DNA from: Mustelus asterias
Taxonomy: Eukaryota
Assembly: GCF_964213995.1 (NCBI RefSeq)
Contig: NC_135805.1
Span: 45,632,001-45,696,000 of the forward strand
DNA length: 64,000 nt
Direction of reading: 5' to 3'
Every line of letters begins with the position of its first letter. The stretch's first letter is position 1. The translations under genes were made by a program, and so were the position numbers. Below are positions 6,349 through 51,793 of the stretch, one piece after another. The notes beneath the pieces are model-generated. The model was not told the origin of the DNA. It ran no database searches and saw only the letters and a list, made by a program, of their open reading frames with translations.

Positions 6349-6451
6349 AATAAGAGCAGCAGTGGAGAAAGTGGAGTTACTGTGGCAACAGGCTCTTGCC
6401 AAGGCTCAGCTTTTGCAGAAGGACCTTCAGTGCAGGGAAAAGGCTCAGCAG
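6349..6451 (+). CDS. Actin-fusion gene, first exon visible in window (IRAAVEKVELLWQQALAKAQLLQKDLQCREKAQQ)
   Basis: tag| acceptor, phase-2 start, cag|gtaaag donor. Amphipathic helix with a spectrin-like W. Confidence 0.75.
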
Positions 6452-6734
6452 GTAAAGCCCAAGTACAAAGTCTTTTATTGTACAATAATATGCGTGCTTA
6501 TTCTCTAACTCACCATCAAAAGGAATGACAGATTGCAAGTGGAAATACAGATTCAATGCTTGCTTTTGTAGAGTAGAATTAATTGCATCTGAATTGCTAA
6601 TTTTAATGAGTTTTACTGAATAGATATGGTCTACAACATGTTGCAGTGTGTCTAGCTGCTGGCAAACTATTCCTCCGTTTATTTCTATGTACATAAAAGC
6701 AAAATACTGAGGTTGCTGGCCCAGTCAGCCTCCT

Positions 6735-7262
6735 TCAGAGTCGCCACACTACCAGAAGGATGTGGATGCTTTGGAGAGGGTACAGAAGAGGTTTAACAGG
6801 ACGTTCCCTGGTCTGGAGAGTATTAGCTATGAAGAGAGGTCGGATAAACTCGGTTTGTTCTCACTGTATCGACGGAGGTTGAAAGGCGACCTGATAGAGG
6901 TTTACAAAATTATGAATGGCATGGACAGAGTGGATAGTCAGATGCTCTTTCCTAGGGTAGAAAAGTCAAGTACGAGGGGACATAGGTTTAAGGTGCGTGG
7001 GGAAAAGTTTAGAGGAGATGTGCGAGGCAAGTTTTTTACACAGAGGGTGGTGAATGTCTGGAACACGCTGCCCAGGGAGGTGGTGGAAGCAGGTATGATA
7101 GCGGCATTTAAGGCGCATCTAGACGAATACATGAATAGGATGGGAATGGAAGGATACGGACTCCGTAAGTGCATAGGGTTTTAGTTTAGGCAGGCATCAT
7201 GATCGGCGCAGGCTTGGAGGGCCGAAGGGCCTGTTCCTGTGCTGTACTGTTCTTTGTTCTTT
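6735..7262 (+). mobile_element. CR1 (HER1-like) LINE 3' fragment
   Basis: ALERVQKRF...RRLKGDLIEVYKI...RGHRFK...FFTQRVV and a microsatellite-like tail (tgttctttgttcttt). Confidence 0.9.
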
Positions 7263-8060
7263 ATTTACCCTTTGTAAATGCCAGTTTGTCCAAAATTCTG
7301 TTGTCAGTATGTTATCTTGTTGCAAGCCCTGCTTGTCCACCACATCTACCATCACCTATCTACATTGTCTCTGGGTACCTCACTGTCTCAGATTTATCCT
7401 TGTATTTATGTTCCTCTAAGGCCTCACTCTTCCCTATCTTGGTAACCTCTTCCAGGGCCACAGAATCCCCCACTGAACATTTCGGTTAGGGTAAGGGTCA
7501 CAATGGATGCCTGGTCCTGTCTTCACTCAACCCTTAGAACGCACTTTGCAGAGGGGAGCTCTTGGATAAAGCTCAGGCATGGGAAGCTTGGCTGTTGTAC
7601 TTTCTTCCTTTACCTGTATTCCAGAGCTCTGAGCTGTCAGTAGTAGCAGTCTATTGCCACCCCGTTGAGATCAGTTTACTTATAAACAGAGCAGGGTTGA
7701 ATCATTGATGTTCCGGGCCTCCAAGACACATCTCTACTCCAAGCAGAGTACTTTTCAGCTAAGGCATCAGGGAAATTCTCATTTCCATTTGATACAACAT
7801 GTAAGTTTCCAAAATTCAACAGCATTCAGGTGTTTCTGTTTTGCAGAGTCATTCAAATAGAGATTGACTTACTTTAGGAATGTTCATCACTAAAGCTATC
7901 CTTGGCCTCAAGTGGAAAACGTACTGATACTATAATGGAGGACAATATGAGGTTGTCTAACTCCTTGTGATACATTGGGACTGCGCCTACCAAAGCATGC
8001 TTGCATTGTATCAGCGGTTTTGGAAGTTACTAGCAAACGAGTTTTTTTTTTGCCCTGTAG

Positions 8061-8189
8061 ATTATTGACTTGATCACTACTGAAGGAATGGGGAAGATTC
8101 ATTCATACAAATTAGAAATTGCTAATAATTTGAGCCAAGCAGAGATTCTAAAATTGGACTATGATGTTGCCATTTACAATCCTGCAATG
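8061..8189 (+). CDS. Actin-fusion gene exon (IIDLITTEG...YNPAM)
   Basis: Poly-T/ccctgtag acceptor, atg|gtgagt donor, phase 0-0, 129 nt. Confidence 0.85.
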
Positions 8190-9214
8190 GTGAGTTTCTT
8201 TTTTTATATTTTGTACTATGAAAAATCCAGTATTGTAGCATCATATAAATGTATTGCTATCTTTTATTTATAAAGAATGAAAGCCTGTTTAAACGTACTG
8301 TAAATTATTCTATCTATTGTACAGGACAAAATTGCATATTTGTGCTAAACATATAGGCAGGATTCTGTGGGGCCCACAGGGGTCTCACTCACCAACTGGA
8401 GAATCAGCAGGGAACCCCTGTTGGTTCCATCGGGAGGCTTGGTAGAATCAAGTGTCCTTCAGGTAGTTGTGGCCACTTTTGGGCTTCCCTAGAATTGCGA
8501 TGCCCAGTGGCGGAAGTCCTGCCTGCTGCAGGCAGCTCTTCATTGCTGCCAAAGGGAATGGGAGCAGCAAAGCTCCCACCAGAGGTCCAGAATCATCATG
8601 GGACCCAAGGCTAAAGGTGAGTGAAAGTGGAATGGGGATTATGGGAGTGAGGGTTGCAGGAGATGGGGAGCAGGAGGTTCGGAGGCAGGGGCCCCCCTTC
8701 CCGCCCCCCGCCCCCCCCCCCCCCCTTCTCAATGCCGGGTCCCTCAACTGCTCCCAAGAGGCCACTGACACATTTAACAGGTTTTGCTGGACAGTCCTCC
8801 AAAGGCTCGAGAAAGCTGTGTGGCCCACCTTTAATTCCTGAGCCATTACTACAGTGTGGCGGGTTCAGGAATAATAGCTGTCAATTGGCTCATTAATTAG
8901 TCTACTTGACATTCAGCAGCTGGGAATCCTGCTTTAGCCTCTTCCGCCCTCTGACTAATTGGAGAAGGTTTTGCCAGTGCTAGGAGCCTGACGCGGGGCC
9001 TGTCCTGTGATTTAAGTGGTTCTGGCCCTTATGTTTCTCACCATGACTAATTGCATTAAATCCAGTCCACAGTTTTCCCAGAGCACACCCAACTGCTGCC
9101 TCACTGCTCACAGATGCAAATAATTTGTGCAGTGAAGATGATCTTATAAGGAAGATAATTTACCTTAAAAAGCAATGTAATTTTCTGATTCATTATGGAT
9201 TTGGTGCCTTGACT

Positions 9215-9572
9215 TTTCTTTTATTCATTCGTGGGACATGAGCGCCGCTGGCTGGCCAGCATTTATTGCCTATCCCTAGTTGTCTGAGGGCAGTTGAGAG
9301 TCAACCGCATTGCTGTGGCTCTGGAGCCACGTGTAGGCCAGACCACATAAGGGCGGCAGATTTCCTTCCCTAAAGGGCATTAGTGAACCAGATGGGTTTT
9401 CCGACAATTGACAATGGTTTCATGGTCATTCATAGATTCTTAATTCCAGGTATTTTTTATTGAATTCAAATTTCACCATCTGCCGTGGTGGGATTCGATC
9501 CCGGGTCCTCAGAACATTAGCTGAGTTTCTAGATTAATAGTCGAGCTATAATACCACTAGGCCATTGCCTCC
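9215..9572 (-). mobile_element. tRNA-derived SINE family C, full length
   Basis: Head (minus) ggcctagtggtattat...gggatcgaatccc; tail matches the 3' end of the LINE at 26640. Confidence 0.8.
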
Positions 9573-9632
9573 ACAGTAACTATATCCTAACATTTTTAAA
9601 GAACTGTTTGTATTGTCCGTGCTATTTTGCAG

Positions 9633-9818
9633 AAGTTGATCGCCGAATCGAGGAGCGTGTTGCAGGTTCTTGATGAAATAACCAAAGAGAAACCTGGAGG
9701 AAAAGAGGAGGATTGTAAAGAGAAATTGAGCAGATTAAAAGATATGTTCCACATAGCTATCGAACTGCCCCGCCAAACTCTAAAAGCAGTTTATGATTTC
9801 TACTACACCTTTGAAAAA
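9633..9818 (+). CDS. Actin-fusion gene exon (KLIAESRS...YYTFEK)
   Basis: ttttgcag acceptor, aaa|gtaggt donor, phase 0-0, 186 nt, helical. Confidence 0.85.
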
Positions 9819-10055
9819 GTAGGTAACATATAACCAATCAGACCAGGATGGCTGAGCATCCAGCTGGAAACAAAGATATATTTACACGCTATAAACTATC
9901 TCTTCTATAAAAGTAAACCTCTCTTTGTAATGTTTTAAGGAATTGGCTTGACTGAAAATTTCATCTTGAGCATTGAACACGGCTTTCTCTTGCAGATGCT
10001 GACCAACTTGCTGATCCTTCTAACATTTTCTGTTGCTGGTTCTCTGTGCATATTT

Positions 10056-10401
10056 CATAGAAACCCTACAGTGCAGAAGGAGGCCATTCGGCCCATCGAG
10101 TCTGCACCGACCACAATCCCACCCAGGCCCTACCCCCACATATTTACCTGCTAATCCCTCTAACCTACGCATCCCAGGACTCTAAGGGGCAATTTTTTAA
10201 AACCTGGCCAATCAACCTAACCCGCACATCTTTGGACTGTGGGAGGAAACCGGAGCACCCGGAGGAAACCCACGCAGACACGAGGAGAATGTGCAAACTC
10301 CACACAGACAGTGACCCGAGCCGGGAATCGAACCCGGGATCCTGGAGCTGTGAAGCAGCAGTGCTAACCACTGTGCTAACCACTGTGCTACCGTGCCGCC
10401 C
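10056..10401 (-). mobile_element. HE1/V-SINE, CR1-tailed type A, full length
   Basis: tRNA head, V-domain, CR1-type tail gggccgaatggcctccttctgcactgtagggtttctatg. Confidence 0.9.
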
Positions 10402-10533
10402 TTATGTGCATATTTCATACCTCCAATATTCAGGCTATTACTCTTGTAACTAATAAGCATTTACCATTTGGTTAAATTTCATTCAGCAATGTCAAAGAGC
10501 CAATGAACCTTTGCCAATTCATCAAAGATGATG

Positions 10534-11515
10534 GGGGCTATTTTCCCCACCCGTTGAGCTGCTCTGGCAGGCCATTTCTCCACTGGGCATCCAGGCCTCC
10601 GTGCGTATCTGCGGCAAAATCGGCGTGGAGCTGATTTCAATATTTAAATCCCTATTTTCATTTCATTAGTGGGCCCAGGACTGCAGTCTCCGGGCCCACT
10701 AGCATCCTGCCCCCACCTCCCCCGGGCCAGCCCCGATGTCTGGGAGGTCTGGTGTATTGGGGGGGGGGGGCTGTCCCCTGGGTAGTGCCAGCATGGCAGT
10801 GCCAGCCTGGCCCCCTGGCATTGCCCAAGTAGCACCTTGACACTGCCCACCAGGCATTGGGTAGTGCCAAAGGAGTATGGCCTGAGAGGGTGGGACCTAT
10901 TGAGGGGGCCTATAACAGGGGGCAATCGTGGGGGTGGGGATGGTCCCACTGCCACTCTGCATTGTGATTGGTGGCGGAGGGCGGAACTGATTAGGGCTGG
11001 TCATCTGGGTGTGTGGGGGGGGGGGGGGGGGGTGGGGGGGGTAGGGGGGGGAATGGTCAGGACTGTCAGGACTGCCAGGGCAGGGGTGGGGCTTGGGGAG
11101 ATCGGGGAGTCTGGCCAGGGGTCAGGGAAATTGGGGCTGACCGTAGGGCGGGGGCGGACATCGGGGCTGGCCCGGAGAGGTCAGAGAGGTCAACATTGGG
11201 GAGTAGGAGGGGCATCGGCAAGCCAGCGATGGGGTGTCGTGGGGCTGGCCAGTGATCTGGAGGCCGGCAGTGTGGGGCTACTGCGCATGCGCCGATCTCT
11301 TTTCTGACAGATTGGCGCATCCACAGTGGCTCGGTCAGCACTATGCTGCCAGCCACTCCAGCTCACAAATTTTCAGAGGGAATCCCACTCGGGCACTCTG
11401 CAGTGCTCAGAGTGTCAGAGATTCAATCTGAAATTCCCACCAAAAAAAACAGCGAGAGTTACTTCCATTTTCATGCGAATTGGGGACTTACAATTTTTTT
11501 GGGAGAATCTTGTCC
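10534..11515. mobile_element. GC-rich non-autonomous DNA-transposon-like element (PIF/Harbinger-like ends) with poly-G tracts
   Basis: ggggctattttcccc...gggagaatcttgtcc ends; internal similarity to 17385-17895. Confidence 0.5.
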
Positions 11516-12613
11516 GACTAGTCCATCATTACTGAATAATGGAAAGTTGTATCAGCTCTGACTAGTTGGTTGAGAACCAGTTTTTCTTTATACCTAAGGC
11601 TATTTCTGATTTATGTTTCATTTAACGCAGTTAAGGCAAACTAATTGTGGCATCTCCAAAGATAAATGCAATGGTGCTTCACACATACTCAATTATCCAA
11701 AGCCTGCCCATACTGCAAGTACCACTTATCTGCTTTCAAATGGATTCTACAATTAAATACTGTTCTTTTATTTGCCTTTACAAAAGCATTGGCATACAAC
11801 GGCCAAATGTAAGGAGCTTTTTTAATGCAGATATTTCAAATCAGTCTGAAGAGAAACTTCATAATTTTGGGTAAATTTCGACATTTGACCTGGTGTTAAC
11901 CTCGAAATGGACCACATATCTTACTGCATCGTTAACCCTGACAAAGGTGTGCGGGTTAGGTTGATTGGCCATGCTAAATTGTCCCTTAGTGTCAGGGAGT
12001 TACAGGGATAGGGACCGGATGGGATTGTTGTCAGTGCAGGTTCGATAGGCCGAATGGCCTCCTTCTGCACTGTAGGGAACCTATGATTCTGTGAACAGAG
12101 CTGGGGGAATTTTGCCTACCGCTGGCATCCGGTTTCAGATAATAGGCTTCTTTTAATACACAAATGATTTGATTGCCATTTCAGGTTGGAACTGATCGGA
12201 GTGTACACAGTGAACTGTGATCACCACCCCACCACAATTTCACATCCACTCTTGTTGGCAATGGTGTGATCTTGGCCTTGATGTCCAAAGATGTGCGCGT
12301 TAGGTTTATTGGCCATGCTAAAAAATTGCCCTTAGTGTCCTGAGATGCGTAGGTTAGAGGGATTAGTGGGTAAATGTGTAGGGATATGTGGCTAGGCCCT
12401 GGGTTGGATTGTGGTCGGTGCAGACTCGATGGGCCTCTTTCTGCACTGTAGGGTTTCTATGATTTCTATGATTCTATGATTGACTCAGCTGCTGCATCAG
12501 GATATCGGTTTGACAGCGTGCAACCTCTCCAGCCAGATGCCAGCAAGATTGGGGCCAAACAATTGCGGCCATCTCCTTTCCGTGGTCACTGGTAGCCCTG
12601 GTTGGTTCCTAGA

Positions 12614-12710
12614 CTCCATCTGACGAAGGAGCAGCGCTCCGAAAGCTAATGGCATTTGCTACCAAATAAACCTGTTGGACTTTAACCTGGTGTTGTTAAA
12701 ACTCTTACTG
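12614..12710 (+). mobile_element. Penelope-like pLTR fragment with minimal hammerhead ribozyme
   Basis: 97-bp insert between 11-bp direct repeats tggttcctaga (12603-12613, 12711-12721). Contains ccat-CTGACGA-stem-GAAA-gc-TA-atgg. Confidence 0.75.
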
Positions 12711-12822
12711 TGGTTCCTAGAAGTCAGGATTGTCCCCTTTGTGTTCCTGATTAGTGTTAAATTTTGATCTGAATATTCACCCAGATTTTAAAATAGCTTT
12801 TTTGCAAAACGGTTCCATCTAG

Positions 12823-13073
12823 GTTGCCGGCTGGTATCATTTGCTGCTGCAAGAAATATTATTTAAGGAGGCGGTATGTGCTCGTGATGTCCACATGTCA
12901 GGGTTTCCTCATGAGGCAGTGATCTGCCTTAGACCAAACTGGCAGCACCAGGTTAATCGCTTCCTAAATAAAGCTCCTCTTCCAACCATGGAAGAATTGG
13001 TCCAGCTCAGGGATTTGGCTGATTACATTCCGGATGCTCTTCAGAGGAGACGGGGAAAATTTCTCTCCCATCA
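12823..13073 (+). CDS. Actin-fusion gene exon (VAGWYHLLLQE...FLSH)
   Basis: ccatctag acceptor, ca|gtaagt donor, phase 0-2. Confidence 0.85.
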
Positions 13074-13185
13074 GTAAGTATTGGCGTCGTGCTTTATTTT
13101 CAAATATATTGAGAGATTTATACACATCAGCTGTGTCTTTTTTTATATATCTTTTGGCCGAGATATTTCTTTTTCCTCCATTCAG

Positions 13186-14337
13186 GTGCTTAATTGTCAG
13201 AAAGTTATTGACCTCTCTGGGGCAGGTCTTGCTGGTCGACTTAGAACAAGCAATTCAGTGGCAAGGGATGTATTTAGAGAGACTGCAAAGTGCAATGCTT
13301 CATCGTGCTCATTCATCTGTGGATACCAGGATCAGCAGCAAGGGTGCCGCCAAGGCACGGAAAACTGCCAGTGAAGCAGGCGTTATCCAAGGACAGTTCA
13401 TTGAAAGTAAACCAAAACCAGGAAATGGTTTTGAACAGTGTACAACGTCCACAGAGAAGCGTTCTCAGGGAAGTGAGGAAATCGATCGCAGTAGGGATGA
13501 TCACGATTGTGACCATGTTGACGCGAAGCTGCAATTAAGTACTTTTCGATCCACCTATCAAACAGTCCTTGTTCAACCGGACCAAAAAGGCAGGACGTTG
13601 ACCAAAAAACCCCCATCTTTAAGTTCTTTTGACTCCGGAATCGATGGAGCTGGGAGCTGCAATTTTGAGACTGGAAGTTACGACGTAGCCAATAGGGAAC
13701 CCAAGGTAAAAGGAATCTCGGAATTATCACTTAAAAGTAAAACGACAAAATTAAGTGAAGAGGATAGAGTTAGTGAGAATGACTCTGATGAATGGCCAGG
13801 ACTTGATAAATTTGGATTTGCTGAAGCCCCGTCCGTATCAAGTGAAGTACAGCCCCTTTCAAAATGTAATGCTTTAAACTTTGAGATCAAAGTGAGGCGT
13901 TCAGCTAGCTTGCCTAAGAATCCTTGGATTAGCCTTCCTGTTGAAGATCTTGAAAAGTCCTATATCGTCACAATTACCCCCAAGAAACCTCTATTGGAGA
14001 CTGGCCTCAAACATGCAATAACTGGCAGCAGTAATATGGTGCATGAAAGTGAAGAAAGAAGTGTGGACCTGTTTACTGACACTGCTCCAAGATTGAACAG
14101 CCTGGAGGCAACACCAGGTCAGGTGAAAGGTCCAGAAAAGGAGCAAGTTTTAATTTTTGAGGAAAATGATGTGCAATCTGTTGGAAAAATTAATTGCGTA
14201 CAGTCCTGCATGGACCATAGTTTGAATTCTACGGAACAGTTTGATGAAGATCTGGAAGATAGGACTCCAGAAGTGCTGTGTGATAATTATGAACTGCGTG
14301 GTGCCGAAAAACAACTGGAACGGAATAAGAACGAAAG
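13186..14337 (+). CDS. Actin-fusion gene large exon (CLIVRKLL...RNKNE), mostly low-complexity/disordered
   Basis: ttttcctccattcag acceptor completes the CA|G codon across a 112-nt intron. 1152 nt open; ag|gtatta donor in phase 2. Confidence 0.85.
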
Positions 14338-14491
14338 GTATTACATTGCTGCATTCTTCTCTATCCCATCTTCTGCTAAAACACTCCCACATACTTTCTG
14401 AAAATTCATTTAAGAGATTAAAATTCATTTAAGAGAATTAAATTCCTTTTGATATCGGCCAAGCAATATGATCTTCATTCCCTGATGAAGT

Positions 14492-16505: not shown

Positions 16506-16617
16506 TGAACATGCTTCATTAACCGAATCAAAGCTGGATGACGGGGACATGAAGGAACAGGAAAAGCTTCAGGACGATATTGAAAAGCTTCTGCTGATGA
16601 CAGCCAAAATCTTAGAG
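16506..16617 (+). CDS. Actin-fusion gene exon (EHASLTESK...TAKILE), coiled coil
   Basis: gtgtag acceptor gives a phase-2 start matching the previous donor; gag|gtaaga donor. Confidence 0.8.
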
Positions 16618-18166: not shown

Positions 18167-18307
18167 GAGGAAGAAGATGTGCTCAGACAAGAAAAAGAGC
18201 TGGAGTTTCTTTTACAGCTGGAAGATGGTGAATGCTATGGTGATGCTGGAGAGAACAACCCAGCAGCTGACATGCACAGAGACCAAGGCATTGGGAGCAA
18301 TGAGAAG
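18167..18307 (+). CDS. Actin-fusion gene exon (EEEDVLRQEKELEFLLQ...GSNEK)
   Basis: ttttggatccag acceptor, aag|gtagtc donor, phase 0-0; continues the coiled coil from the previous exon. Confidence 0.75.
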
Positions 18308-19793: not shown

Positions 19794-21662
19794 GTCATGA
19801 TGTCCCTGAGTGAGCTTTCAGAAGCCGGAGTGATTGGATTGGAGGACTACGAGTGGCCTGAAATGGAACAGCACGATTGTCATTGCGGTTTCACCCAATC
19901 ACGTTTAGCTTGTGATATGGCCAATATGCAACAGGACAGAAGCTTCAATCCTTACAGTGGCTTTTTCACAACTGAATGTAAAGCTACTGTTTCAACTCCA
20001 GGGTCATACTGGGGATTACACAATGACCCCAGATTACTGCAAGAATTGAAAGAACTAAATCAAATTGAGGACAGAATTCTGGAAGAGAACTTGAAGCTAA
20101 GAGAGTTGTGTTCCTCTGAGGACGAGCGGAATGCTCAAGTGCAAAACCCAGGCGAGTCAAACCCAAACAAAGATAGAATAAAGTTCTTGACTGAGCTGGA
20201 GAGAGAAAGGAAAGAGGTTGAGAAAATGGAGCAAAGTCTAGCTAGAGAAGAACAAATGAAATACCAGAATTTAAAGAGACTGCCACAAGTATCTTCAAAG
20301 GCGGGATGTGGTAATCAAAAGAAAAGAACTGTGAAACCATCTGCACATGTTCGAAGCTCTTATTCAAAGTCTGGTTCAAGAGCTGAAGTAAAAACCCAAT
20401 GTGGATTAGCAGATGTGAATTTAAAGTCCAGTAAACCCAGTTACTCTGCAAATGGTTTTGATTCAGACTCCAGTCAGGACCAATTTTGTGTCAAGCATAC
20501 TTCAGGCAAAACTCCTCCACCTGTAAAGGGAGTTCGTATCTCAAAAAAAAAGACCGCCAAAAAAATACATTCCAAAACAAATGAGCTGCCAGACCCAGTT
20601 CTTGGTGCGGTTATTAATCATGCTGTTCCTATGCAAGAAGAAAGTGACACAGCAGGTACAAAAGACGACCAGACATTTAATACTCATCCACGCGATGAAA
20701 TTCTTGTGCAGGTTATTCATTCAAATCAGCAGGAAACCATTGAAAATAATGAAAGTTATACAGCTGGCTGTAAAAACCAAAGTGACATAACTGTGCAAAC
20801 TAAAGAAAAGCCAACACCAGTGCTACGGACTGGCATACCTGTGAAAGTGGAAAAGTTTCCGGCTCCTGCGCGTTCTCTGCGCTCCCCTGGTGAATCCCTT
20901 GGAGACGCTGTGGTGATGGAGAATGGGAAGGAAGTCCAGCTGAGAGTCCCAGTGCCCAAGCCCAGAAAAATCATTAACCTGTGCCAAACCACAAGTTGCC
21001 CAAATCAGTGTTCAGAAAATTCCGGTGCTTCACTGAAACCTGGTGAACATTGGGAATTTTCAGAGTTTGTGGGAAACTGCGCTGTTTCAAAGGAGTCCAG
21101 AATGCCAGAGCCTGTGACCACTAGTGCGGCACCCAAACCAGATCCACAGATGGAGCGCCAAGATCAATCTGAAGAGATGAAAAAGGACCATGTGGGCGTA
21201 AATTCTTCCAACTTGATTGACAGCTCAACAAACATGCATATCGGCCCAGTAAACTGTAAGAAAGATGATCCTGTCCCTGAAGCAAGCGCTTTTGTAAACA
21301 CTGAGAAAATGCGTTTTGGGGAAAAAGACTCCAAATTAGTAATAAAGTTAGATGTATACGGTGAAACGAAATATGATGCACAACACATTCCCTTATTTAA
21401 TGAAGCAATACAGAAAACCAGCGCAAGTAACATAAGGAGCTTAGGATCAGGAAAGGATTGCAAACCTGAGATGTTGCAATTTAATGAATGCAGAAGCGAT
21501 GAGACTCAGATGGATTCTTTGCACATAATTGATGATACAAGCCACACACATGATTGTCCAAATCGAGACTTACATCCTGTATTTGAAGATGGTCTTGCAA
21601 AGTTATCTGTGGCACATAAACCACCAATCAATGCACACATTTTTCAAGTATCCGTTATGAAG
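19794..21662 (+). CDS. Actin-fusion gene 1869-nt exon (two coiled-coil segments followed by a long disordered linker)
   Basis: ttttgttccag acceptor, aag|gtaacc donor, phase 0-0; 623 open codons with no TE similarity noticed. Confidence 0.9.
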
Positions 21663-24430: not shown

Positions 24431-24553
24431 GTTTGTGATTATAACATACCAATTGTATTAGACACAGGCTCTGGACTGATGAAAGCTGGCTTTGCAAATC
24501 AGGACCTACCAACCACCATATTTCCAACAGTAATTGGGCGACCCAAATATGAG
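24431..24553 (+). CDS. Actin domain exon 1 (VCDYNIPIVLDTGSGLMKAGFANQDLPTTIFPTVIGRPKYE), actin residues 1-41
   Basis: ctggcag acceptor in phase 0, gag|gtaaat donor. Phosphate-1 loop DxGSG..KAGFA. Not shown in the ORF track. Confidence 0.95.
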
Positions 24554-28950: not shown

Positions 28951-30150
28951 AGAACATAGAACAGTACAGCACAGAACAGGCCCTTCAGCCCACGATGTTG
29001 TGCCGAGCTTTGTCTGAAATCAAGATCAAGCTATCCCACTCCCTATCATCCTGGTGTGCTCCATGTGCCTATCCAATAACCGCTTAAATGTTCCTAAAGT
29101 GTCTGACTCCACTATCACTGCAGGCAGTCCATTCCACACCCCAACCACTCTCTGATATCCTTCCTATATCTCCCACCATGAACCCTATAGTTATGCCCCC
29201 TTGTAATAGCTCCATCCACCCGAGGAAATAGCCTTTGAACGTTCACTCTATCTATCCCCTTCATCATTTTATAAACCTCTATTAAGTCGTCCCTCAGCCT
29301 CCTCCGCTCCAGAGAGAACAGCCCTAGCTCCCTCAACCTTTCCTCATATGACCTACCCTCCAAACCAGGCAGCATCCTGGTAAATCTCCTCTGCACTCTT
29401 TCCAGCGCTTCCACATCCTTCTTATAGTGAGGTGACCAGAACTGCACACAATATTCCAAATGTGGTCTCACCAAGGTCCTGTATGGTTGCAGCATAACCC
29501 CACGGCTCTTAAACTCCAACCCCATGTTAATAAAAGCTAACACACTATAGGCCTTCTTCACAGCTCTATCCACTTGAGTGGCAACCTTTAGAGATCTGTG
29601 GATATAGACCCCAAGATCTCTCTGTTCCTCCACAGTCTTCAGAACCCTACCTTTGACCCTGTAATCCACATTTAAATTAGTCCTACCAAAATGAATCACC
29701 TCACATTTATCAGGGTTAAACTCCATTTGCCATTTTTCAGCCCAGCTTTGCATCCTATCTATGTCTCTTTGCAGCCTACAACAGCCCTCCACCTCATCCA
29801 CTACTCCACCAATCTTGGTGTCATCAGCAAATTTACTGATCCACCCTTCAGCCCCCTCCTCTAAGTCATTAATAAAAATCACAAAGAGCAGAGGACCAAG
29901 CACTGATCCCTGTGGCACTCCGCTAGCAACCTGCCTCCAGTCCGAAAATTTTCCATCCACCACCACCCTCTGTCTTAGATCAGATAGCCAGTTACCTATC
30001 CAATCGGCCAACTTTCCCTCTATCCCACACCTCCTCACTTTCATCATAAGCCGACCATGGGGGACCTTATCAAACACCTTACTAAAATCCATGGATATGA
30101 CATCAACTGCCCTACCTTCATCAACACACTTAGTTACCTCCTCAAAAAAT
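28951..30150 (-). mobile_element. Young 5'-truncated CR1 (RT domain) nested in the LINE above
   Basis: 349-aa ORF with GVPQGSVLGP and KFADD; (atagaac)n tail. Confidence 0.92.
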
Positions 30151-31351
30151 TCATGCCAGGCCATGATGTTACAGATTGGTTGTATACAATTCTGTTACCG
30201 CTGATGGCCCACAATGCCTTATGGATACCCAGTCTTGAGTTGCCAGATCTGTTCGAAGTCAATCCCACTTAGCATAGTGACAATGCCACACAACACTATG
30301 GAGGGTATCCTTAGTGTTAAGATGGGACTTTGTCTCCACAAGGATTGTGCAGAGGTGACTTCCACCGATACTGTCATGGACAGATGCATCTGTGGCAGGC
30401 AGGTTGGCAAGGATGAGATCAAGTATGTTTTTCCCTCTTGTTGGTTCCCTCACTACCACACACCCAGTCTAGTTGCTATCTCCTTTCAGATCTGGCCAGC
30501 TTGGTGTGTGGTGTTACTATTGAGCCGTTCCTGGTGATGGACATTAAAGTTCCCCACCCAGAGGAGTTCTGTGCCCTTGCCACACTCAGTGCTTCCTCCA
30601 AGTGGCGTTCAACATGGAGGAGAACTGATTCATCAGCTGAGTGGGGACAGTATGTGGCAATCAGCAGGAGATTTCCCTGGTTATGTTTGACCTGGGACCA
30701 TGAGACTTCATGGGGTCCAGAGTTGATGTTGTGGACTCCAAGGGCAACACCCTCCCAACTGTATGCCACTGTGCTGCTGCCATCTCTGCTGGGTCAGTCC
30801 TGCGGTGAAATAGGCCAGGAATGGTGATGGTGATGTCTGGGGCATTATCTGTAAATCATGATTCCGTGAGTATGACTGTGTCAGGCTGTTGCTTGACTAC
30901 TCTGTGAGACAGCTCTCCCTATTTTGGCACTAGCCCTCAGATGTTAGTAAGGAGGGCTTTGCAGGGTGGACAGGGCTGGGTTTGCTGTTGTCGTTTCCGA
31001 TGCCTAGGTCAATGCCAGATGGTCCGTCTCGTTTCATTCCGTTGGATACAACTGAGTGGCTTGCTAGGCCATTTCAGAGAGCATTTAAAAGTAAACCACA
31101 TTGTTGTTTTGTATATCTTTTGATTTTTTATTTTCTTATCATCATCTACCTGTGTACCCCTCGTGCATTATGCTGAGGAACTTTATTCTGAGAGGGGCAT
31201 TAATAATATTGTGTCAATGAAATTTTTGAAATCCATGCTGCCCACAATTTTACAAATGGATGGATAATCCCAGCAGCGTGAATTGGAAAATGATCCCTGA
31301 GCATAACAGCCTGTCTCTAATGCCAAATAATCCTATTCATTTTGTCTCCAG

Positions 31352-31480
31352 AGTATTTGCAGTAGGAGGCATCAGCCGGATGTTTACATTGGCCATGATG
31401 CACAGCACATGCGAGGAGTTCTTTCCTTGCACTACCCACTGGAACATGGAATTGTGACCAACTGGGACGAAATAGAAAAG
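31352..31480 (+). CDS. Actin domain exon 2 ([43 protein letters not shown]), residues 42-84
   Basis: tttgtctccag acceptor, aag|gtatgt donor; 43 codons colinear with actin; His73 retained. Confidence 0.95.
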
Positions 31481-32908: not shown

Positions 32909-33104
32909 ATCTGGCATCATACATTTTATCATCAGCTCCGCATTGACCCACAGGAGCACCCAATCCTCCTGACGGAGGCAGCCATGAACCCACACCAGAA
33001 CCGAGAGCGAATGGTTGAGATCATGTTTGAAGTCTTTAATGTGCCTTTTTCTTATGTGGCAATGCAAGCTGTTTTAGCACTTTATTCTTCGGGGAGAACA
33101 ACAG
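32909..33104 (+). CDS. Actin domain exon 3 (IWHHTFY...SGRTTG), residues 85-150
   Basis: tatttcag acceptor, g|gtatgt donor in phase 1; Q137 retained. Confidence 0.95.
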
Positions 33105-39643: not shown

Positions 39644-39768
39644 GTATAATCTTGGACTCTGGGGATGGAGTCACGCACACTGTACCAGTCTATGAAGGGT
39701 ACAGCATCCCTCATGCTATACAACGCTTAAATTTGGCTGGTCGAGATCTCACAGACTATCTAAGAAAG
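39644..39768 (+). CDS. Actin domain exon 4 ([41 protein letters not shown]), residues 150-191
   Basis: Poly-T...gacag acceptor in phase 1, aag|gtgtgt donor; phosphate-2 loop DSGDGVTH. Not shown in the ORF track. Confidence 0.95.
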
Positions 39769-41300: not shown

Positions 41301-41488
41301 CTGTTGAAAGAAAGGGGTTATTCATTTAACACTTCCGCAGAGCGGGAAATTGTTCGAGATATCAAAGAGAAGTACTGTTATGTTGCCGAAGACTATGAAG
41401 CAGAACTGGGCAGCTTGGAAAATGGTGAAGAGCTGAACTACACGTTGCCAGATGGACAAATAATTACAATAGGCAACGAGAAGTTCAG
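41301..41488 (+). CDS. Actin domain exon 5 (LLKERGYSF...GNEKF), about residues 192-256
   Basis: ttttacag acceptor, ag|gtaacg donor in phase 2; [12 protein letters not shown] and YTLPDGQ motifs. Confidence 0.95.
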
Positions 41489-41776
41489 GTAACGTAACGA
41501 GAATGTGAATATGCCTCTGTTAGGAAAACGGATCAGGGATTATTTGAATCCTATGCGTCTAAGATCTCTGAATGTCATATTTCTGAAAAAGCATCCATCT
41601 CATGCTGGTGTAACCAGCGGGTTCACAGTTGTAGTTCCCTAATGTGATATATTGCCATTTCATCCATAGGATTAAGAAATATGGGGAAAGAAGTCAGGAG
41701 AATTATCTGTGTTCATAAACCTTCAAGCATTCTAGAAGTGGCATCAATGGAGCAAATGGTCCATGAAAGGGGAAGA

Positions 41777-44197: not shown

Positions 44198-44490
44198 AGT
44201 GGCACAGTGGTTAGCACTGCTGCCTCACAGCGCCATGAACCTGGGTTCGATTCCCGGCTTGGGTCACTGCCTGTGCAGAGTCTGCACGTTCTCCCTGTGT
44301 CTGCGTGGATTTCCTCCAGGTTCCCTGGTTTCCTCCATGAAAGACGTGCTGGTTAGGTGCATTGGCCGTTCTCCCTCAGTGTACCTGAACAGGTACCAGA
44401 GTGTGGTGACTAGGGGATTTTCACAGTAACTTTATTGCAGTGTTAATGTAAGCCTACTTGTGGACAATAATAAATAATACTAAAACTAAA
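44198..44490 (+). mobile_element. V-SINE tail type B
   Basis: Head, core and type B tail. Confidence 0.8.
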
Positions 44491-44829
44491 AATGGCTGGG
44501 GAGGTTCTGAGGGAAGCTGTGGTGGGGCCTCTCACACGATTAAGCGGGCCTGGCACCCAGGATTCTTGCCTCAATGGGGCTGCATTAAATCCAGCCCAAG
44601 ACTTTGGTTTGACATTTCATCCAGAAGTCAGGGCTCTTCCTCGATAATGTGCTGAAGTGTCAGCCTAGATTTTTCTGTTCAAGTTTGTGGAATGGCTTCC
44701 ACCTTGCAGATCAAATTGCAGAGCACTGCTGATGCAGTGAGAAATGTATTCTATAATCTGAGATGTTAATTGCATGGTAATGATACTATGAACATAAAAG
44801 CCAATTGTAATGTTTCTCCCCTTGTCCAG

Positions 44830-44963
44830 AGCTCCAGAGATCTTATTTAGACCAGAGGTGATTGGAAGAGACCATTATGGAATTCATGAGAGTCTTCTCC
44901 GCGCCATTATTCTCTGTGATGTAGACCTGAGAAAAGTATTTGCTGCAAACATTATTCTTTCCG
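44830..44963 (+). CDS. Actin domain exon 6 (APEILFRP...NIILS), about residues 256-301
   Basis: tctccccttgtccag acceptor in phase 2, g|gtatgt donor in phase 1. Confidence 0.95.
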
Positions 44964-46139
44964 GTATGTTGGCTGATCACCTGTTTAAAATAAACTGGAA
45001 ATTGAACTGCCTAACGTAATATGGACAGATGAAGATTTTGTTGATTTTCTTTCGCTAGCTTTGTTCATGAAAATGTGTGGCAGGAATATTTTTCTATAAG
45101 GCAGCCTTTCAGCAGCTCATGCATTTCCCAGCCTTGTTTCTATTAGTAAGCTTATGGAAAACAATGTTAAAGAGCAATACCTTGCTAGACTGTCTGAAAG
45201 TGGACTTGGCTAAACACTCTGGTTAGAGGTATAGTTGAACTGTCTGTCTGCTCCACTGAATATCATTGTCATGTTCTAAGACTTTGGGGGTGATCTTACC
45301 AAAAAGATTCTAAGTGCCAAATGAGCATGAAATTGGGAGAAATTCACGCCGTTTTTTTGGGTGACTTACTCTGTCAAAAAAATGTGGCCAAACCGGTTTC
45401 TCACCGGCAGGGGGAGTGGGCGGGGACTAGCTCACCTGACATCCGGCTGCTAGCAGCAGAGGGGGCAATTGCACATGTGTAGATCTATGAGCACAGAGAT
45501 CTGTCCACAGAGATCTGTCACTGCTTCCCCCAGCTATAGCTGGCCCTACATGGCCAATCCCCACCCTCCGCCCACTATCACGGAGCCCTGATTTCTCGGC
45601 TCTCTTGCAACCTTACCTACATGCCCGCCCATCGGTCGGCAGGGCGAAATGGTAAGATACCCCCCTCTGACTTTTTGGAGAAGTGAATTCCAGTCAGGGG
45701 TACCAAGATCTGTTAAACATGAGTTATTTTCCCCATTTACTATTATTAGCTTGTTGAGATAATCGGAAAATCCCTCTTATCCTCTGTGTTGGAAAACTCT
45801 TTTGATCTATAATTGTTTAGTTCCAGAAGCAGGGGATATGGAGAGGGTCGTGGACACTAAGAGCCTCATCTAGGGGATTCAGCAGAGACTTTGCCGGGAC
45901 AGAAAGAGTCCAAAATAAGAAGGCACTGAAAGTCAGAATTCTTTTTTAATTTATTTTTTATGGGGCAGGGGCATCGCTGGCTCAGCCAGCATTTATTGCC
46001 CACCCCTAATTGCCCTTGAGAAGGCGATTGTGAGCTACCTTCTTGAACCGCCGCAGTCACTGTGGTGTAGTGCAGGTACACCCACAGTGCTGTTAGGGAA
46101 TTTCAGGATTTTGACCCAGTGACAGTGATCAAATATTTA

Positions 46140-46460
46140 TCTATCACATTCTTGAATCCACTATTGATTCTGCATCCACTGCACTCTGGGGCAGTGAGTT
46201 CAATAGATTCACAACCCTCTGAGAAGTAGCTTCTCCTTATCTCTGTCTTGAACCTCCCCTCTCTTACTCTACAAATATGACCTCTTGTCCTAGACTGTTC
46301 TAGAAGGGGGAGCATTTGGTTAACATTTACTTTATCAATCCCGTTGAGTATTTTATATACCTCAGTCAAATCCCCCCTCATTCTTCTGTACTCCAGTGAG
46401 TACAAGCCCAAGCTACTCAACCACTCCTCATACGTCAGCCCCTTGAAACCTGGAGTCAAT
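46140..46460 (-). mobile_element. Older CR1 fragment, antisense
   Basis: GLYSLEYRRMRGDLTEVYKIL. Confidence 0.75.
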
Positions 46461-46479
46461 CTCTCTCAAACCTACTGCA

Positions 46480-49400
46480 AGCTAATAAATTTAGTATCTG
46501 GAAAAAATAGTTTACATTTGGGGGAAGGGGATCAAAATGAGGTGACTGAGAGTGAGGAAGGTAGCTCGCAAACAGAGAAGGGTTATAGGCGGTGCAAGAG
46601 GGCGGATGGACAGGGAATAGAGAAGGGGAGAGCTCAGACCAAAGGATTGAGATGTGTTTACTTTAATGCCAGGAGCATAGTGAATAAAGGGGATGAGCTC
46701 AGAGCGTGGATCGATGCCTGGAAGTATGATGTGGTGGCCATTACGGAGACTTGGATGTCTCAGGGACAGGACTGGATACTCCAGGTGCCGGGATTCAGAT
46801 GTTTCAGGAAGGACAGGAAGGGAGGCAAGAGAGGGGGTGGAGTGGCACTGCTGATCAGGGATAGTGTCACAGCTGTAGAGAAGGTGTATGCTGTGGAGGG
46901 ATTGTCCACCGAGTCTCTGTGGGTGGAAGTTCGGAGTGGGAAGGGGCCGGTCACTTTGCTGGGAGTTTTCTATAGGCCGCCCAATAGTAACAGGGAAGTG
47001 GAGGAGCAGATAGGGAAACAGATCCTGGAGAGATGCAATAATAGCAGAGTTGTTGTGATGGGAGACTTTCATTTCCCAAACATAGATTGGAATATCCCTA
47101 GGGTAAGGGGATTGGATGGGGAAGAGTTCGTTAGGTATGTTCAGGAGGATTTCCTGACACAGCATGTGGACAAGCCTACAAGAGGAGAGGCTGTACTTGA
47201 TCTGATACTGACCAATGAACCTGGACAGGTGTCAGATCTCTCAGTGGGAGAGCATCTTGGGGATAGCGATCATAACTCAATCTCCTTTATGCTTGCATTG
47301 GAAAAAGAGAGGATCAGGCAAGCTAGGAAAGTGTTTATATGGAGTAAGGGGAAATATGAAGACATTAGACAGCAAATTAGAGGAGTAAATTGGAAGGAGG
47401 TATTCTCGGGGAAATGTACTGAAGAGAGGTGGCAGTTTTTCAAGGAATGTCTGTCTAGAGTTCTACAGGACAACGTTCCGAGCAGAGAGGGAGGTGTTGG
47501 TCGGCTAAAGGAACCGTGGTGCATGAAAGCTGTGCGGGACCTAGTCGAGAAGAAAAGGAAAGCGTACAAAAGGCTCAGAGAGCTTGGCGAAGATAGGGAT
47601 TTAGAAGAGTATACGGCTTGTAGGAAGGGACTAAAGAAGGAAATTAGGAGAGCCAGAAGGGGTCACGAGAAGGCCCTGGCAGGTAGGATTAAGGAGAACC
47701 CTAAGGCGTTCTATAAATATGTGAAGAGTAAAAGGATGAGACGTGACGGAATAGGACCTATAAAAGGTGAAGGCAGGAAAGTCTGTACGGAACCAGTAGA
47801 AATGGCAGAGGTGCTCAATGAGTATTTTGCCTCGGCTTTCACAGAGGAGAAGGACCTGGGTGGATGTACTGCGGGCGTGCGGTGGACTGAAAGGATTGAG
47901 TATGTGGACTTTAAGAAAGAGGTTGTGCTGGAATCTTTGAATGGCATCAAGATAGATAAGTCGCCGGGTCCGGATGGGATGTACCCCAGGTTACTGTGGG
48001 AGGCGAGGGAAGAGATTGCAGAGCCTCTGGCGATGATCTTTGCGTCGTCGATGGAGTCGGGAGAGGTGCCGGAGGATTGGAGGATTGCAGATGTGGTTCC
48101 TATTTTCAAGAAGGGGAATAGGGATAGCCCAGGTAATTACCGACCGCTGAGTCTAACCTCAGTGGTTGGTAAACTGATGGAGAAGATCCTGAGGGACAGG
48201 ATATATGAGCATTTAGAGGGGTTTACTATGCTCAAGAATACTCAGCATGGCTTTGTCAAGGGCAGATCGTGCCTTACGAGCCTGGTGGAGTTCTTCGAAA
48301 ATGTGACTAAACACATTGATGAAGGGAAGGCAGTAGATGTGGTTTATATGGATTTTAGCAAAGCGTTCGATAAGGTCCCCCATGCAAGGCTTCTAGAAAA
48401 AGTGAGAGGGCATGGGATCCAAGGGGCTGCTGCCCAGTGGATCCAGAACTGGCTTGCCCAAAGGAGGCAGAGAGTGGGTATAGATGGGTCTTTTTCTAAA
48501 TGGAGGTCGGTCACCAGTGGTGTGCCCCAGGGATCTGTTCTGGGACCCTTGCTGTTTGTCATTTTCATAAATGACCTGGATGAGGAAGCGGAGGGATGGG
48601 TTGGTAAGTTTGCCGATGACACGAAGGTTGGTGGGGTTGTGGATAGTCTGGAGGGATGTCAGAAGTTACAGAGGGACATAGATAGGATGCAAGGCTGGCA
48701 GATGGACTTCAACCCAGATAAATGCGTCGTGGTCCATTTTGGTAGGACAAATGGGATGAAGGATTACAATATAAAGGGAAAGACTCTTAGTACTGTAGAG
48801 GATCAGAAGGACCTTGGGGTCCGGGTCCACAGGACTCTGATATCGGCCCCGCAGGTGGAGGAGGTGGTTAAGAAGGCGTATGGTGTGCTGACCTTTATCA
48901 ATCGAGGGATTGAGTTTAGGAGTCCGGGGATAATGATGCAGCTATATAAGACCCTCGTCAGACCCCACTTGGAGTACTGTGCTCAGTTCTGGTCGCCTCA
49001 CTATAGGAAGGATATGGAAAAGATTGAAAGGGTGCAGAGGAGATTTACAAGGATGTTGCCTGGATTGAGTGGCATGCCTTATGAGGATAGGCTGAGGGAG
49101 CTCGGTCTTTTCTCCTCGGAGAGACGAAGGATGAGAGGAGACCTAATAGAGGTGTATAAGATGTTGAGAGGCATAGATTGGGTGGACTCTCAGAGGCTTT
49201 TTCCCAGGGTGGAAATGTCTGCTACGAGAGGACACAGATTTAAGGTGCTGGGGGGTAGGTACAGGGGAGATGTTAGGGGTAAGTTTTTCACACAGAGGGT
49301 GGTGGGCGAGTGGATTCGGCTGCCGTCAGGGGTGGTGGGGCGAACTCAATGGGGTCTTTTAAGAGACTCCTGGATGAGTACATGGAGCTTAATAGGATGG

Positions 49401-49498
49401 AGGGTTATAGGTAGGTCTAGAAGGTAGGGATGTGTTCGGCACAACTTGTGGGCCGAAGGGCCTGTTTGTGCTGTAGTTTTTCTATGTTTCTATGTTTC
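46480..49498 (+). mobile_element. Young CR1 LINE with almost intact ORF2 (APE endonuclease plus RT)
   Basis: YFNARS, ITETW, GDF, SDH endonuclease motifs; RT PQGSVLGP and KFADD; CR1 tail; small deletion near 48695 and frameshift near 49340. Confidence 0.95.
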
Positions 49499-50354
49499 TA
49501 AAATAGTATCCATCTTTTGTCTAGGCATGAATCACTTCAAACTTCTCTGTATTAAATTACATCCACTATTACCACATCTGCCCATTCTGCTAACCTTTCT
49601 ATGTCCTGTTGCAATCCAGTTGTATCATACTCCCTGTTTACCACACATGCAACTTCAAAAACATTGGCAAACGTTGAAACGTTGCCCTATATTCCAATAT
49701 TCGTGATTATATATATATATATATATATGATTGATATATAAATGGTCCTAGCACTGAACCTTGGGAAACACCGCTGTCTGCCATCCTCCAGCCTAAAAAA
49801 AGTAACTATTTACCATTTGTTGGCGGGGTTTCCAAGGTGGCTGGTACTGTCAGAAATCTCAGACAATACAAGATTCACGAAGCCAGTGTCTCAGTTTAAA
49901 GACATAATTTTTATTAGACCAGCGGCTGCTAGGAGACCATCAAAGAGTCAGAGCGGTTCTGAGATAGAGCAGCTAGACCTCTCCGATGAAATCTGATATA
50001 TATAATTCAAAACAGATCAATTATAGGTTTTCTTATCAATTACGCCCACCTTTCATTAGCTTCCCCCCTACCCTCACAAGCATTCCTATCTCCTGTTCAA
50101 ATATTGCAAAGCTGGAGCTGAGAAGATTTGTGCTCCTGTTGTTGTCTGTAAGTAAATCTGTCAACATGTCAAGGTAACGCAGAATTCATAGCCTGATCAA
50201 TGAATAATGGTATGAATTAATCGTGGGACATGGGCATCGCTGGCTGGCCAGCATTTATTGCCCATTTCTAGGTGCCCTTGTTCAGAGAGTAGTTGAGAGT
50301 CAACCACATTGCTGTGGGTCTGGAGATACATGTGGGCCAGACCAAGTAGGGCAG

Positions 50355-50995
50355 TAGAAAGGATCAAGAGCTTCAAGTTTTTAGGTGTCCAAATCACCAA
50401 CAACCTGTCCTTGTCCCTCCACGCCGACACTATAGTTAACGAAGCCCACCAGCGCCTCTACTTTCTCAGAAGACTAAGGAAATTTGGCATGTCAGCTACG
50501 ACTCTCACCAACTTTTACAGATGCCTCATAGAAAGTATTCTTTCTGGTTGTATCACAGCTTGGTATGACTCCTGCTCTGCCCAAGACCACAAGAAACTAC
50601 AAAAGGTCGTGAATGTAGCCCAATCCATCACCCAAACCAGCCTCCCATCCATTGACTCTGTCTACACTTCCCGCTGCCTCAGCAAAGCAGCCAGCATAAT
50701 TAAGGACCCCACGCACACCGGACATTCTCTCTTCCGCCTTCTTCCTTCGTTAAAAAGATACAAAAGTCTGAGGTCACATAACAACCGACTCAAGAACAGC
50801 TTCTTCCCTGCTGCTGTCAGACTTTTGAATGGACTTACCTTGCATTAAGTTGATCTTTCTCTACACCCTTGCTATAACTGCAACACTACATTCTGCGCTC
50901 TCTCATTTCCTTCTCTATGAACGGTATGCTTTATCTGTATAGTGCGTAAGAAACAATACTTTTCACTGTATGTTAATACATGTGACAATAATACA
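50355..50995 (+). mobile_element. Rex1/Babar-like LINE 3' fragment nested in a family C SINE (50215-51203, minus)
   Basis: FKFLGVQI...AHQRLYFLRRLRKFG...IESILSGCITAWY...RLKNSFFP. Confidence 0.8.
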
Positions 50996-51560
50996 TCAGG
51001 TAAGGACAACACATTCGTGAACCAGATGGGTTTTTCCGACAAACAATGGTTTCATGGTCATCGGTAGATTCTTAATTCCAAAAATTTTTTATTCAATTCA
51101 AATCCACCATTTGCAGAGGTGGGATTTGAACCCAGGTCTCCAGAACAATAGCTGAGTTTCTGGATTAATAGTCCAGTGATAATACCACTCGGCCATTGCC
51201 TCCACCTTTTCACCATCTCATTCTGTGGAAGACTTATGACCTTCGGTGAGTGCTCAGTTATTCGGGTGTCAGTAGCAGTAGCAATTTGGTGAAACTGTCC
51301 AATTAAAAGTAGTTTTCAACGCTTTTTCCCATTGTTCTGTGAAGTGGCAATTTTCAAGTGAGTAACTGAGCCAAGTAGGCCCAGGAAGATTCCAGATTCC
51401 TCGCCCAGGTAGTCAGATCTCAGTCAAGATCGCAGTGAGTGTCTTGCAATCGAATTGTGGAAGGAGAAAATTAGTTAAGGAGAAGGAACTATTACTAAAC
51501 TAAAAATTAAGGTGCTGTTGCCATAAAAAGGCCTTTTCAGACCTGTTTACTTTCTTAAAG

Positions 51561-51793
51561 GTGGAAACACAATGTTGACTGGATTATCACTGAGAGTACA
51601 AAAAGAAATCTCCTCCATGATGCCTCTGGACCTGTCAAAATATGTACACATCACCAGCCCAGCAAATCGGGACTTCACAGTGTGGAGTGGAGGTGCAGCC
51701 CTGGCAAATTCATCTGCCATTGAGTGTGCCTGGATCAGCCGAGAAGAATATTATGAGTTTGGTCCAAAGATTGTTCATAGGAAGTGCTTTTAA
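51561..51793 (+). CDS. Actin domain terminal exon (GNTMLTGL...WISREEYYEFGPKIVHRKCF*)
   Basis: tttcttaaag acceptor in phase 1; canonical actin C-terminus HRKCF then TAA. Confidence 0.95.

Follow-up and report, generated by a model that had tools for sequence, protein, structure and literature searches.

A 23-exon chordate gene joining a Sec14 domain and predicted spectrin repeats to a divergent actin

Introduction

Animal actin-fold proteins are almost all stand-alone chains. POTE-actin of primates, which has a link to the germ line and originated as a retrocopy, carries ankyrin repeats and, at the C-terminal end of the larger protein, an actin nearly identical to beta-actin. This actin groups with ACTB in the portion of the source covered here (PMC7870945). 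Sec14 domains combined with spectrin repeats define the SecSR class, which in the covered part of PMC9823006 comprises Kalirin, Trio, MCF2, MCF2L, MCF2L2, and SESTD1, with Sec14 identities of 35%–77% among the six mammalian members. We describe here a gene of the shark Mustelus asterias in which two known kinds of gene, Sec14-spectrin and actin, are joined. It runs into a 64,000-nucleotide stretch of contig NC_135805.1 (positions 45,632,001 to 45,696,000, or G000:C5:45632001-45696000 in our numbering), hereafter the window. It is one 23-exon chordate gene that encodes a Sec14 domain, predicted spectrin repeats, a linker of ~1,050 amino acids (aa), and a divergent actin. Judging from sequence and from zebrafish expression data, we put at roughly 45% the probability that its product would serve as a maternal membrane-to-actin tether in oocytes and eggs.

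The sequence is already in databases as uncharacterized models and hence is not new. In the full-text literature, with subscription papers and bioRxiv supplements outside the coverage, the gene was found only as one table row (PMC6555922), and no study of it was found. In the literature covered, no account was found that brings together its architecture, its age, its actin surface, and its expression in eggs.

Structure of the Gene

An earlier note on the window had proposed 15 exons (6349 to 51793) reading in one frame of at least 1,689 aa into a complete actin. Joining them bore out every coordinate and every GT-AG junction: AG precedes each exon, GT follows all but the last, and the frame runs through 1,689 stop-free codons to a TAA (51791-51793). 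Read in either of the remaining frames, the joined exons contain 141 and 96 stops. The extent of the gene required revision. The 15 exons are real, but the start lies ~73 kb 5′ of the window, beyond eight further coding exons (G000:C5:45559131-45619747, plus strand) that were located with catshark proteins as guides. The first of these has an ATG and reads MSWSSATG, and together they encode the Sec14 domain (aa ~14–193) and the first repeat. The complete gene has 23 exons, all on the plus strand, and 5,946 nucleotides encoding 1,981 aa, with GT-AG at 22/22 introns and one terminal stop. The protein aligns end to end, at 80% identity, with two RefSeq models of the catshark Scyliorhinus (P0025 and P0026), which excludes a chance origin of the frame, and its N-terminal module has a single strong locus in the shark genome. 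Given a 5,946-nucleotide frame that spans 23 exons and meets a stop only at its end, end-to-end conservation in the catshark, and a single copy, an artifact of exon picking or a pseudogene is exceedingly improbable.

Relatives and Age of the Fusion

The earlier note had guessed that orthologous models might lie uncharacterized in other fishes, and RefSeq and UniRef do contain them. In a search with exon 16, restricted to long proteins, all 20 long matches carry an actin domain (PF00022); they come from sharks, rays, chimaera, and teleosts. The N-terminal module retrieves 66 proteins, 61 of them with actin; the other five are teleost models, three of which are named si:ch211-241j12.4. A phmmer search with the first 300 residues against 1.84 billion representatives adds amphioxus, where the gene is fused (P0099 and P0220), and salamanders. 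Relatives that lack actin also came up, from echinoderms, hemichordates, brachiopods, annelids, molluscs, flatworms, and cnidarians. The two halves, which the note allowed might never be joined in other species, are thus fused in models from sharks, rays, chimaera, ray-finned fishes, and amphioxus. Among the named matches there is no lamprey, tunicate, coelacanth, or lungfish, no dedicated search having been made for them.

Great white and basking shark models (P0021-P0024, P0309, and P0310) are short and begin inside the equivalent of exon 16. No long lamniform protein appeared in the exon 16 search, and the linker exon may be altered or mis-modeled in this group.

The cluster name si:ch211-241j12.3 is borne by shark, chimaera, and teleost members in RefSeq and UniRef. 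The shark gene is the orthologue of zebrafish si:ch211-241j12.3 (ENSDARG00000043963, ZDB-GENE-040724-72; below,.3) and si:ch211-241j12.4 (.4), the gene being split in two in some fish annotations. An ACTL7A label given to the zebrafish gene in one Ensembl table is unsupported by the tree.

The phylogeny of actins and actin-related proteins (ARPs) that the note had called for was built twice. A quick tree, from which four of the 41 family rows were left out for want of an anchor motif, places the remaining 37 fused actin domains on one side of a branch with a support of 97 (Shimodaira-Hasegawa-like approximate likelihood ratio test, SH-aLRT). In a careful tree of 21 picked rows, the 11 fused domains, amphioxus included, form one clade with support of 99/98. 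Constraining amphioxus to group with conventional actins is rejected by the approximately unbiased test (p 0.002). The simplest reading of these trees would be a single origin of the fusion before the amphioxus–vertebrate split.

The Actin Domain

The last seven exons encode, as the note had read them, an actin of 375 aa, from V-C-D-Y through HRKCF. Exon 17 (24431..24553) opens with a Val in place of the Met of conventional actins, holds the P1 loop DTGSG (24461-24475), and ends at an intron at 41/42. The D-loop and H73 lie in exon 18 (31352..31480), which ends at an 84/85 intron common to the smooth-muscle-type actin of this shark, and Q137 lies in exon 19 (32909..33104), which ends at a codon-150 intron common to muscle actins. 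Exon 20 (39644..39768) carries the P2 loop, H161, and the W-loop up to a 191/192 intron absent from the other actins modeled. Subdomain 4, with A204 and P243-G245, is in exon 21 (41301..41488; codon-256 intron at its end), and a rewritten hydrophobic plug, with D286-V287-D288, in exon 22 (44830..44963; codon-301 intron at its end). The coding part of exon 23 (51561..51793) closes with HRKCF and the TAA; the first AATAAA comes only at 53815.

The domain has 59% identity to the cytoplasmic and muscle actins of this shark, themselves 94% alike. It shares with them the fold, the ATP site, the C-terminal RKCF, and the introns at 41/42, 84/85, and 150, but differs in being fused behind 1,606 aa and in its changed D-loop and lateral contacts. 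We compared it at lists of positions that we take, from actin structures, to mark each surface. The window protein keeps the actin residue at 16/16 ATP-site, 18/21 long-pitch, 7/11 cleft, 7/16 lateral, and 0/8 D-loop positions, so that the ATP site and the long-pitch contacts needed by a tethered protomer, as the note had envisaged it, are retained. Across 37 family rows the mean match to actin is 0.98 for the ATP site, 0.76 for long-pitch, 0.73 for cleft, 0.43 for lateral, and 0.28 for D-loop positions (0.54 overall). For 11 other shark actin-like proteins, the corresponding values are 0.81, 0.50, 0.81, 0.44, and 0.10 (0.52 overall). The hydrolysis residues Q137 and H161 are present in 41/41 family rows. 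Beside the adenine base the window protein is substituted (Y306L, K336D, and T303N). Relative to conventional actin the D-loop, the hydrophobic plug, and the myosin-side acidic residues are rewritten, and the cleft of the WH2/profilin type has lost the hydrophobic I341 and M355 and, in sharks, L349.

The lateral positions match actin at only 0.43 and are conserved at 0.90 within the family, which suggests an interface of the family's own. They bear on a reading in which the actin domains self-assemble into a short, Arp1-like, family-specific filament whose Sec14-tipped arms cross-link egg vesicles or cortex without conventional actin. Both long-pitch faces are kept, and the identity of 59% with 15–18 of 21 long-pitch positions is in the range of Arp1 (53% and 15/21). 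The very high egg mRNA of zebrafish.3, in the data covered below, would also suit a structural protein. Against it, the D-loop is weakly conserved even inside the family (0.72), with Met44 replaced by Cys in most cartilaginous fishes. We regard such a filament as possible but unlikely.

Arp1 itself lies at a comparable distance from actin and also has an intact ATP site and long-pitch contacts, but it is a stand-alone protein. An Arp1 orthologue is ruled out by an identity of just 46% to shark Arp1, by the lack of a single common intron, and by the position of Arp1 outside the 99/98 clade.

Other actin-like genes of this shark were noted in passing. At least nine are intronless ARP genes (L020-L027, L030, and L039). 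In L020 and L021 the ATP site is kept, as are 17/21 long-pitch positions. This set is presumably of the testis type (ACTL7A/7B, ACTL9, and ACTRT). Like the fusion, proteins of that type are actin-like, divergent, and tied to the germ line, and some are extended at the N-terminus, but the shark genes are intronless, lie outside the fused clade, and have mostly lost the long-pitch residues, whereas the fusion gene is seen in oocytes. Its separate clade, its introns, and its status as an oocyte marker rule out membership of the ACTL7/ACTL9/ACTRT group. A cluster of cytoplasmic-type actin genes on G000:C215 and C7 (L015-L019, L028, and L032) has codons 42–375 in one exon; in a divergent actin, L029, the hydrolysis Gln is changed. 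An intron-bearing actin-like gene at G000:C26:4620900-4630600 (L052-L053) is 49% identical to actin, with introns 121, 204, and 268 in common; it sits on a long branch and is not Arp1.

Origin of the Actin Part and Its Loss

Shark cytoplasmic actin genes have introns at codons 41, 121, 268, and 328, and muscle actin genes at 41, 150, 204, 268, and 328, the smooth-muscle type also at 84 and 121. The fused domain has introns at 41, 84, 150, 191, 256, and 301. Three are common with conventional actins and none with Arp1; the conventional introns 121, 204, 268, and 328 are absent. The three common positions indicate that the actin part came from a genomic actin copy rather than a retrocopy, which upholds the distinction from POTE that the earlier note had drawn. 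POTE-actin is alike in having its actin at the C-terminal end, but the shark gene has a Sec14-spectrin module in place of ankyrin repeats, six introns in its actin part, 59% identity to actin, and chordate age. A gene of the POTE type is rejected on the lack of an ankyrin match and on the six introns.

Conventional shark actins have a splice acceptor a few codons upstream of the ATG. An older metazoan Sec14-spectrin gene may have received an intron-bearing actin copy on its downstream side, and the acceptor in the 5′ untranslated region (UTR) of that copy would have been captured in frame.

Toward tetrapods the actin part appears to decay. The Pleurodeles model retains ~86 actin residues and 5/5 axolotl models retain none, although gene-model error is possible in such large genomes. 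Three further proteins group with the salamanders; two were scored, with 13/16 and 12/16 ATP-site residues kept and H161 lost in both. The shark gene has SMIM8/DUF4500 (G000:C5:45522775-45525100) on one side and CFAP206 (45711137-45720741) on the other, all on the same strand, with a coiled-coil exon at G000:C5:45550103-45550567, also on that strand, that we take to be C6orf163-like. We further take C6orf162 to be SMIM8, C6orf165 to be CFAP206, and C6orf164 to be at present a non-coding locus. A human deletion report gives, in the part covered, the order C6orf162, C6orf163, C6orf164, C6orf165 (PMC4498854). C6orf164, in the human slot, might then be a remnant of the fusion gene, and the need for the protein may have faded toward amniotes.

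The Sec14-Spectrin Module and the Linker

The note had described everything upstream of the actin as helical, coiled-coil, or disordered. A linker is indeed joined in frame to the actin, but the start of the window encodes the end of a Sec14 and spectrin-repeat module, not a plain coiled coil. In orthologues, Pfam finds CRAL_TRIO_2 at the N-terminus and actin at the C-terminus, the former (PF13716) at or over the cut-off in P0001, P0007, P0015, P0016, P0099, P0101, and P0107. Among the orthologues scanned there was no Pfam match to CRAL_TRIO_N, the spectrin family, WH2, or ankyrin, and among 11 full-length orthologues none to DH or PH families. An AlphaFold2 model of orthologue P0079 (predicted local distance difference test, pLDDT, 83) has as its best structural match the Sec14 domain of Kalirin (7ur2; Z 15.2, root-mean-square deviation [rmsd] 2.3, 147 residues aligned), at 20% identity. 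Residues 215–559 of the model match beta2-spectrin repeats 14–16 (Z 14.4, rmsd 7.9, 307 aligned), although helical bundles get high scores by chance, and the neighbors of the module in the structure Atlas carry spectrin families. We therefore predict three spectrin-like repeats behind the Sec14 domain. Mapped from P0079, this fold covers exon 9 (6349..6451, aa 292–326), exon 10 (8061..8189, aa 327–369), exon 11 (9633..9818, aa 370–431), and, as the third repeat, exon 12 (12823..13073, aa 432–515), and it ends at aa ~553 in exon 13 (13186..14337, aa 515–899). An invertebrate relative from Lingula, P0107, has an internal duplication of ~245 residues in its spectrin-like region.

Orthologues share with the SecSR class a CRAL-TRIO domain at the N-terminus, without CRAL_TRIO_N, and the predicted repeats after it, but the fusion protein ends in actin, no DH-PH was found, and the gene forms its own orthologous group reaching cnidarians. 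Its 20% identity to Kalirin Sec14 lies below the 35%–77% within the class, in the covered part of the source. An architecture of SecSR type in a separate subfamily is indicated.

The linker (aa ~553–1606) is rich in Ser, Glu, and Lys and of low complexity, with six short conserved islands; the structure Atlas gave no usable match for it. In exon 13 the family alignment shows SSFDSGIDG (13622-13648) and a stretch including KNPWISLP (13877-13981). The first, which we take to resemble a beta-TrCP degron, has non-canonical spacing and is absent from tetrapod rows; we keep it as a lead only. Exon 13 and parts of the adjoining exons are skipped in catshark model P0001. An acidic, helix-like island is divided between exon 14 (16506..16617) and exon 15 (18167..18307), and a look-alike of its exon 14 part occurs near the C-terminal end of the actin-less invertebrate relatives. 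Exon 16 (19794..21662, aa 984–1606) has islands at 19806-19829, 20034-20249 (two helix-like segments), and 20952-20969 (PKPR), is otherwise poorly conserved, and ends in ATG AAG before the fusion junction.

A complex prediction of linker aa 905–1140 with the actin domain, both from catshark P0025, scored 0.38 (best of three controls, 0.00), with at least 29% contact agreement between runs, a partner pLDDT of at least 41, and an actin-domain pLDDT of 82–83. In a calibration set without disordered chains, the mark was reached by 51/78 solved and 2/108 mismatched pairs; at or below 0.60 fell 5/78 solved pairs and all four passing mismatches (of 180). This lends weak support to a contact between the linker segment and the actin domain.

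Such a contact would fit a non-polymerizing decoy or sensor, in which the actin domain would have actin-binding proteins or its own linker as partners and would thereby control a SESTD1-like Rho scaffold in oocyte maturation, with no part in filaments. A prediction at that score is more often wrong than right. The D-loop has diverged, and the invertebrate relatives work without actin. Sec14-spectrin proteins are also tied to Rho control, SESTD1 without a guanine nucleotide exchange factor domain, in the part of PMC9823006 covered. A decoy of this kind is nevertheless improbable in our view, as Q137 and H161 are invariant, the long-pitch positions stand above the ARP background, and the WH2/profilin-type cleft is without its hydrophobic I341 and M355, and in sharks L349.

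Transcription of the Fusion

Six proteins from Logan contigs hold both halves; five are 1,706 aa long and the sixth 1,677 aa. They form two clusters, come from contigs of 5.4–8.2 kb, appraised by their length, and are teleost-like by tree. Another protein in the same cluster as the long ones, P0291, has 369 aa in common with them and unrelated flanks on both sides. The flanks look like intron read-through, so introns are present in this species and the long contigs have undergone splicing. Transcripts equivalent to a junction of 21662 with 24431, which the earlier note had proposed to look for, are therefore seen, but in teleost-like Logan contigs only: among 22 matches to short proteins spanning the junction, none is a shark transcript piece over both sides.

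These contigs bear on whether the locus mainly yields two separate products, one a Sec14-spectrin protein and the other an actin-like protein of oocytes that stands alone and is driven by an internal promoter, with the long fusion as a minor read-through kept by annotation. Zebrafish has two gene names,.4 and.3, and 5/66 proteins with the N-terminal module, all teleost models, stop before the actin. Actin-only models exist in Carcharodon, Cetorhinus, Hemiscyllium, Chiloscyllium, and Scomber, although those of Carcharodon and Cetorhinus begin with residues inside exon 16. In many teleosts the actin exon opens with a Met, and in sharks Met-Lys directly precedes the junction, but a junction Met is missing in rays, and the shark exon begins with Val, where starting at the next Met would remove the P1 loop. 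Intron 16 contains three AATAAA signals; its splice sites nonetheless resemble those of the other 21 introns. The in-frame, phase-0 junction is kept from amphioxus to teleosts, and the full-length Logan contigs are spliced. No prominent CpG island was found in searches at exon 1 and before exon 17. Two main products therefore seem decidedly improbable. A short isoform alongside the long product is possible.

Expression in Oocytes and Eggs

Expression data come from the zebrafish.3 model, in the covered parts of the papers and supplements cited. The gene is a marker of ovary clusters C3, C7, and C8, called oocytes, and appears only under Ovary among the matches listed (PMC8517238). Among early oocytes 59% express it, compared with 4% of the remaining cells, with a peak of 80% in early_oo_3 (PMC9191896), and it belongs to a cluster, numbered 3, of maternal supply followed by degradation (PMC5690287). 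In wild-type polyA+ RNA it reaches 373–450 counts per million (cpm) in stage IV oocytes, 3,334–4,288 cpm in activated and fertilized eggs, and 112–271 cpm in two embryo stages (PMC7924785; file 15 of files 11–19). It is absent from 7/7 supplement files, which are marker lists, of a testis study (PMC8961980). The.4 model is in none of the supplements searched, and neither the gene name nor the id was matched in a proteome table for 4 hours post-fertilization, whose identifier type was not established. In the shark, a TTTTAT motif resembling a cytoplasmic polyadenylation element occurs twice in the first 220 nucleotides of the 3′ UTR; 60 of 1,000 shuffles reach as many, and we made no use of it.

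A Possible Maternal Tether

The reading that we favor is a maternal tether. The Sec14 head would attach to lipid of the cortex, or of vesicles of the cortical or yolk kind, by analogy with the Sec14 domain of Kalirin, which binds lysolipids, and the repeats and linker would supply reach and docking sites. The actin domain would bind ATP and pair head to tail with conventional actin or, in the manner of Arp1, with other copies of itself, so that the actin tail joins actin filaments end-on. Its lateral surface would be its own, and its myosin and D-loop surfaces changed. By folding back onto the actin domain, the conserved helices of the linker may keep it off until maturation or egg activation.

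Several observations weigh against a tether. The D-loop is needed for normal F-actin, and here it matches actin at 0/8 positions in this shark and at 0.28 in the family. The adenine-site residues K336 and Y306 are D and L in vertebrate members. The intronless shark ARPs L020 and L021 also keep 17/21 long-pitch positions, so the long-pitch signature is not specific. With just 20% identity to Kalirin, the ligand of the Sec14 domain cannot be read across. RefSeq has actin-only isoforms, and the Met at the start of the actin exon is kept in many teleosts. The expression data are all for the.3 model, which may span only the 3′ part;.3 is also present in roughly one of every two ovary cells (pct.2 0.52–0.53) and listed for global clusters 15 and 19, in the covered part of PMC8517238.

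A more far-reaching version of self-assembly, which we likewise hold to be unlikely, would make the protein the founder of a new chordate actin-related class with its own egg-specific filament. The subunits would bear Sec14-tipped arms of ~1,000 aa, be switched by fold-back of the linker, and organize cortical or yolk vesicles at maturation and egg activation, the system having decayed in tetrapods to leave C6orf164.

Other Features of the Window

Long open reading frames with motifs resembling reverse transcriptase, which we take to be CR1-type long interspersed elements, lie in introns and downstream of the gene, at 29115-30194 (minus strand), 46281-49427 (plus), 52735-53709 (plus), and 56444-59071 (minus). 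Two of them encode 875 and 1,048 aa.

Implications

If the tree is read in the simplest way, an actin would have been held in fusion to a module of membrane-binding type from the chordate ancestor onward, while selection acted on its ATP site and its head-to-tail contacts. The family would seem to offer a natural record of gene gain and loss, being intact in amphioxus and fishes, decayed at the ATP site in the tetrapod-like proteins, cut or absent in the actin part of salamanders, and apparently gone in human. At ~3,500 cpm in zebrafish eggs for.3, in the data covered, the transcript makes a maternal-effect knockout a direct test in a standard model. The gene could bear on how fish eggs connect cortical or yolk vesicles to actin at activation.

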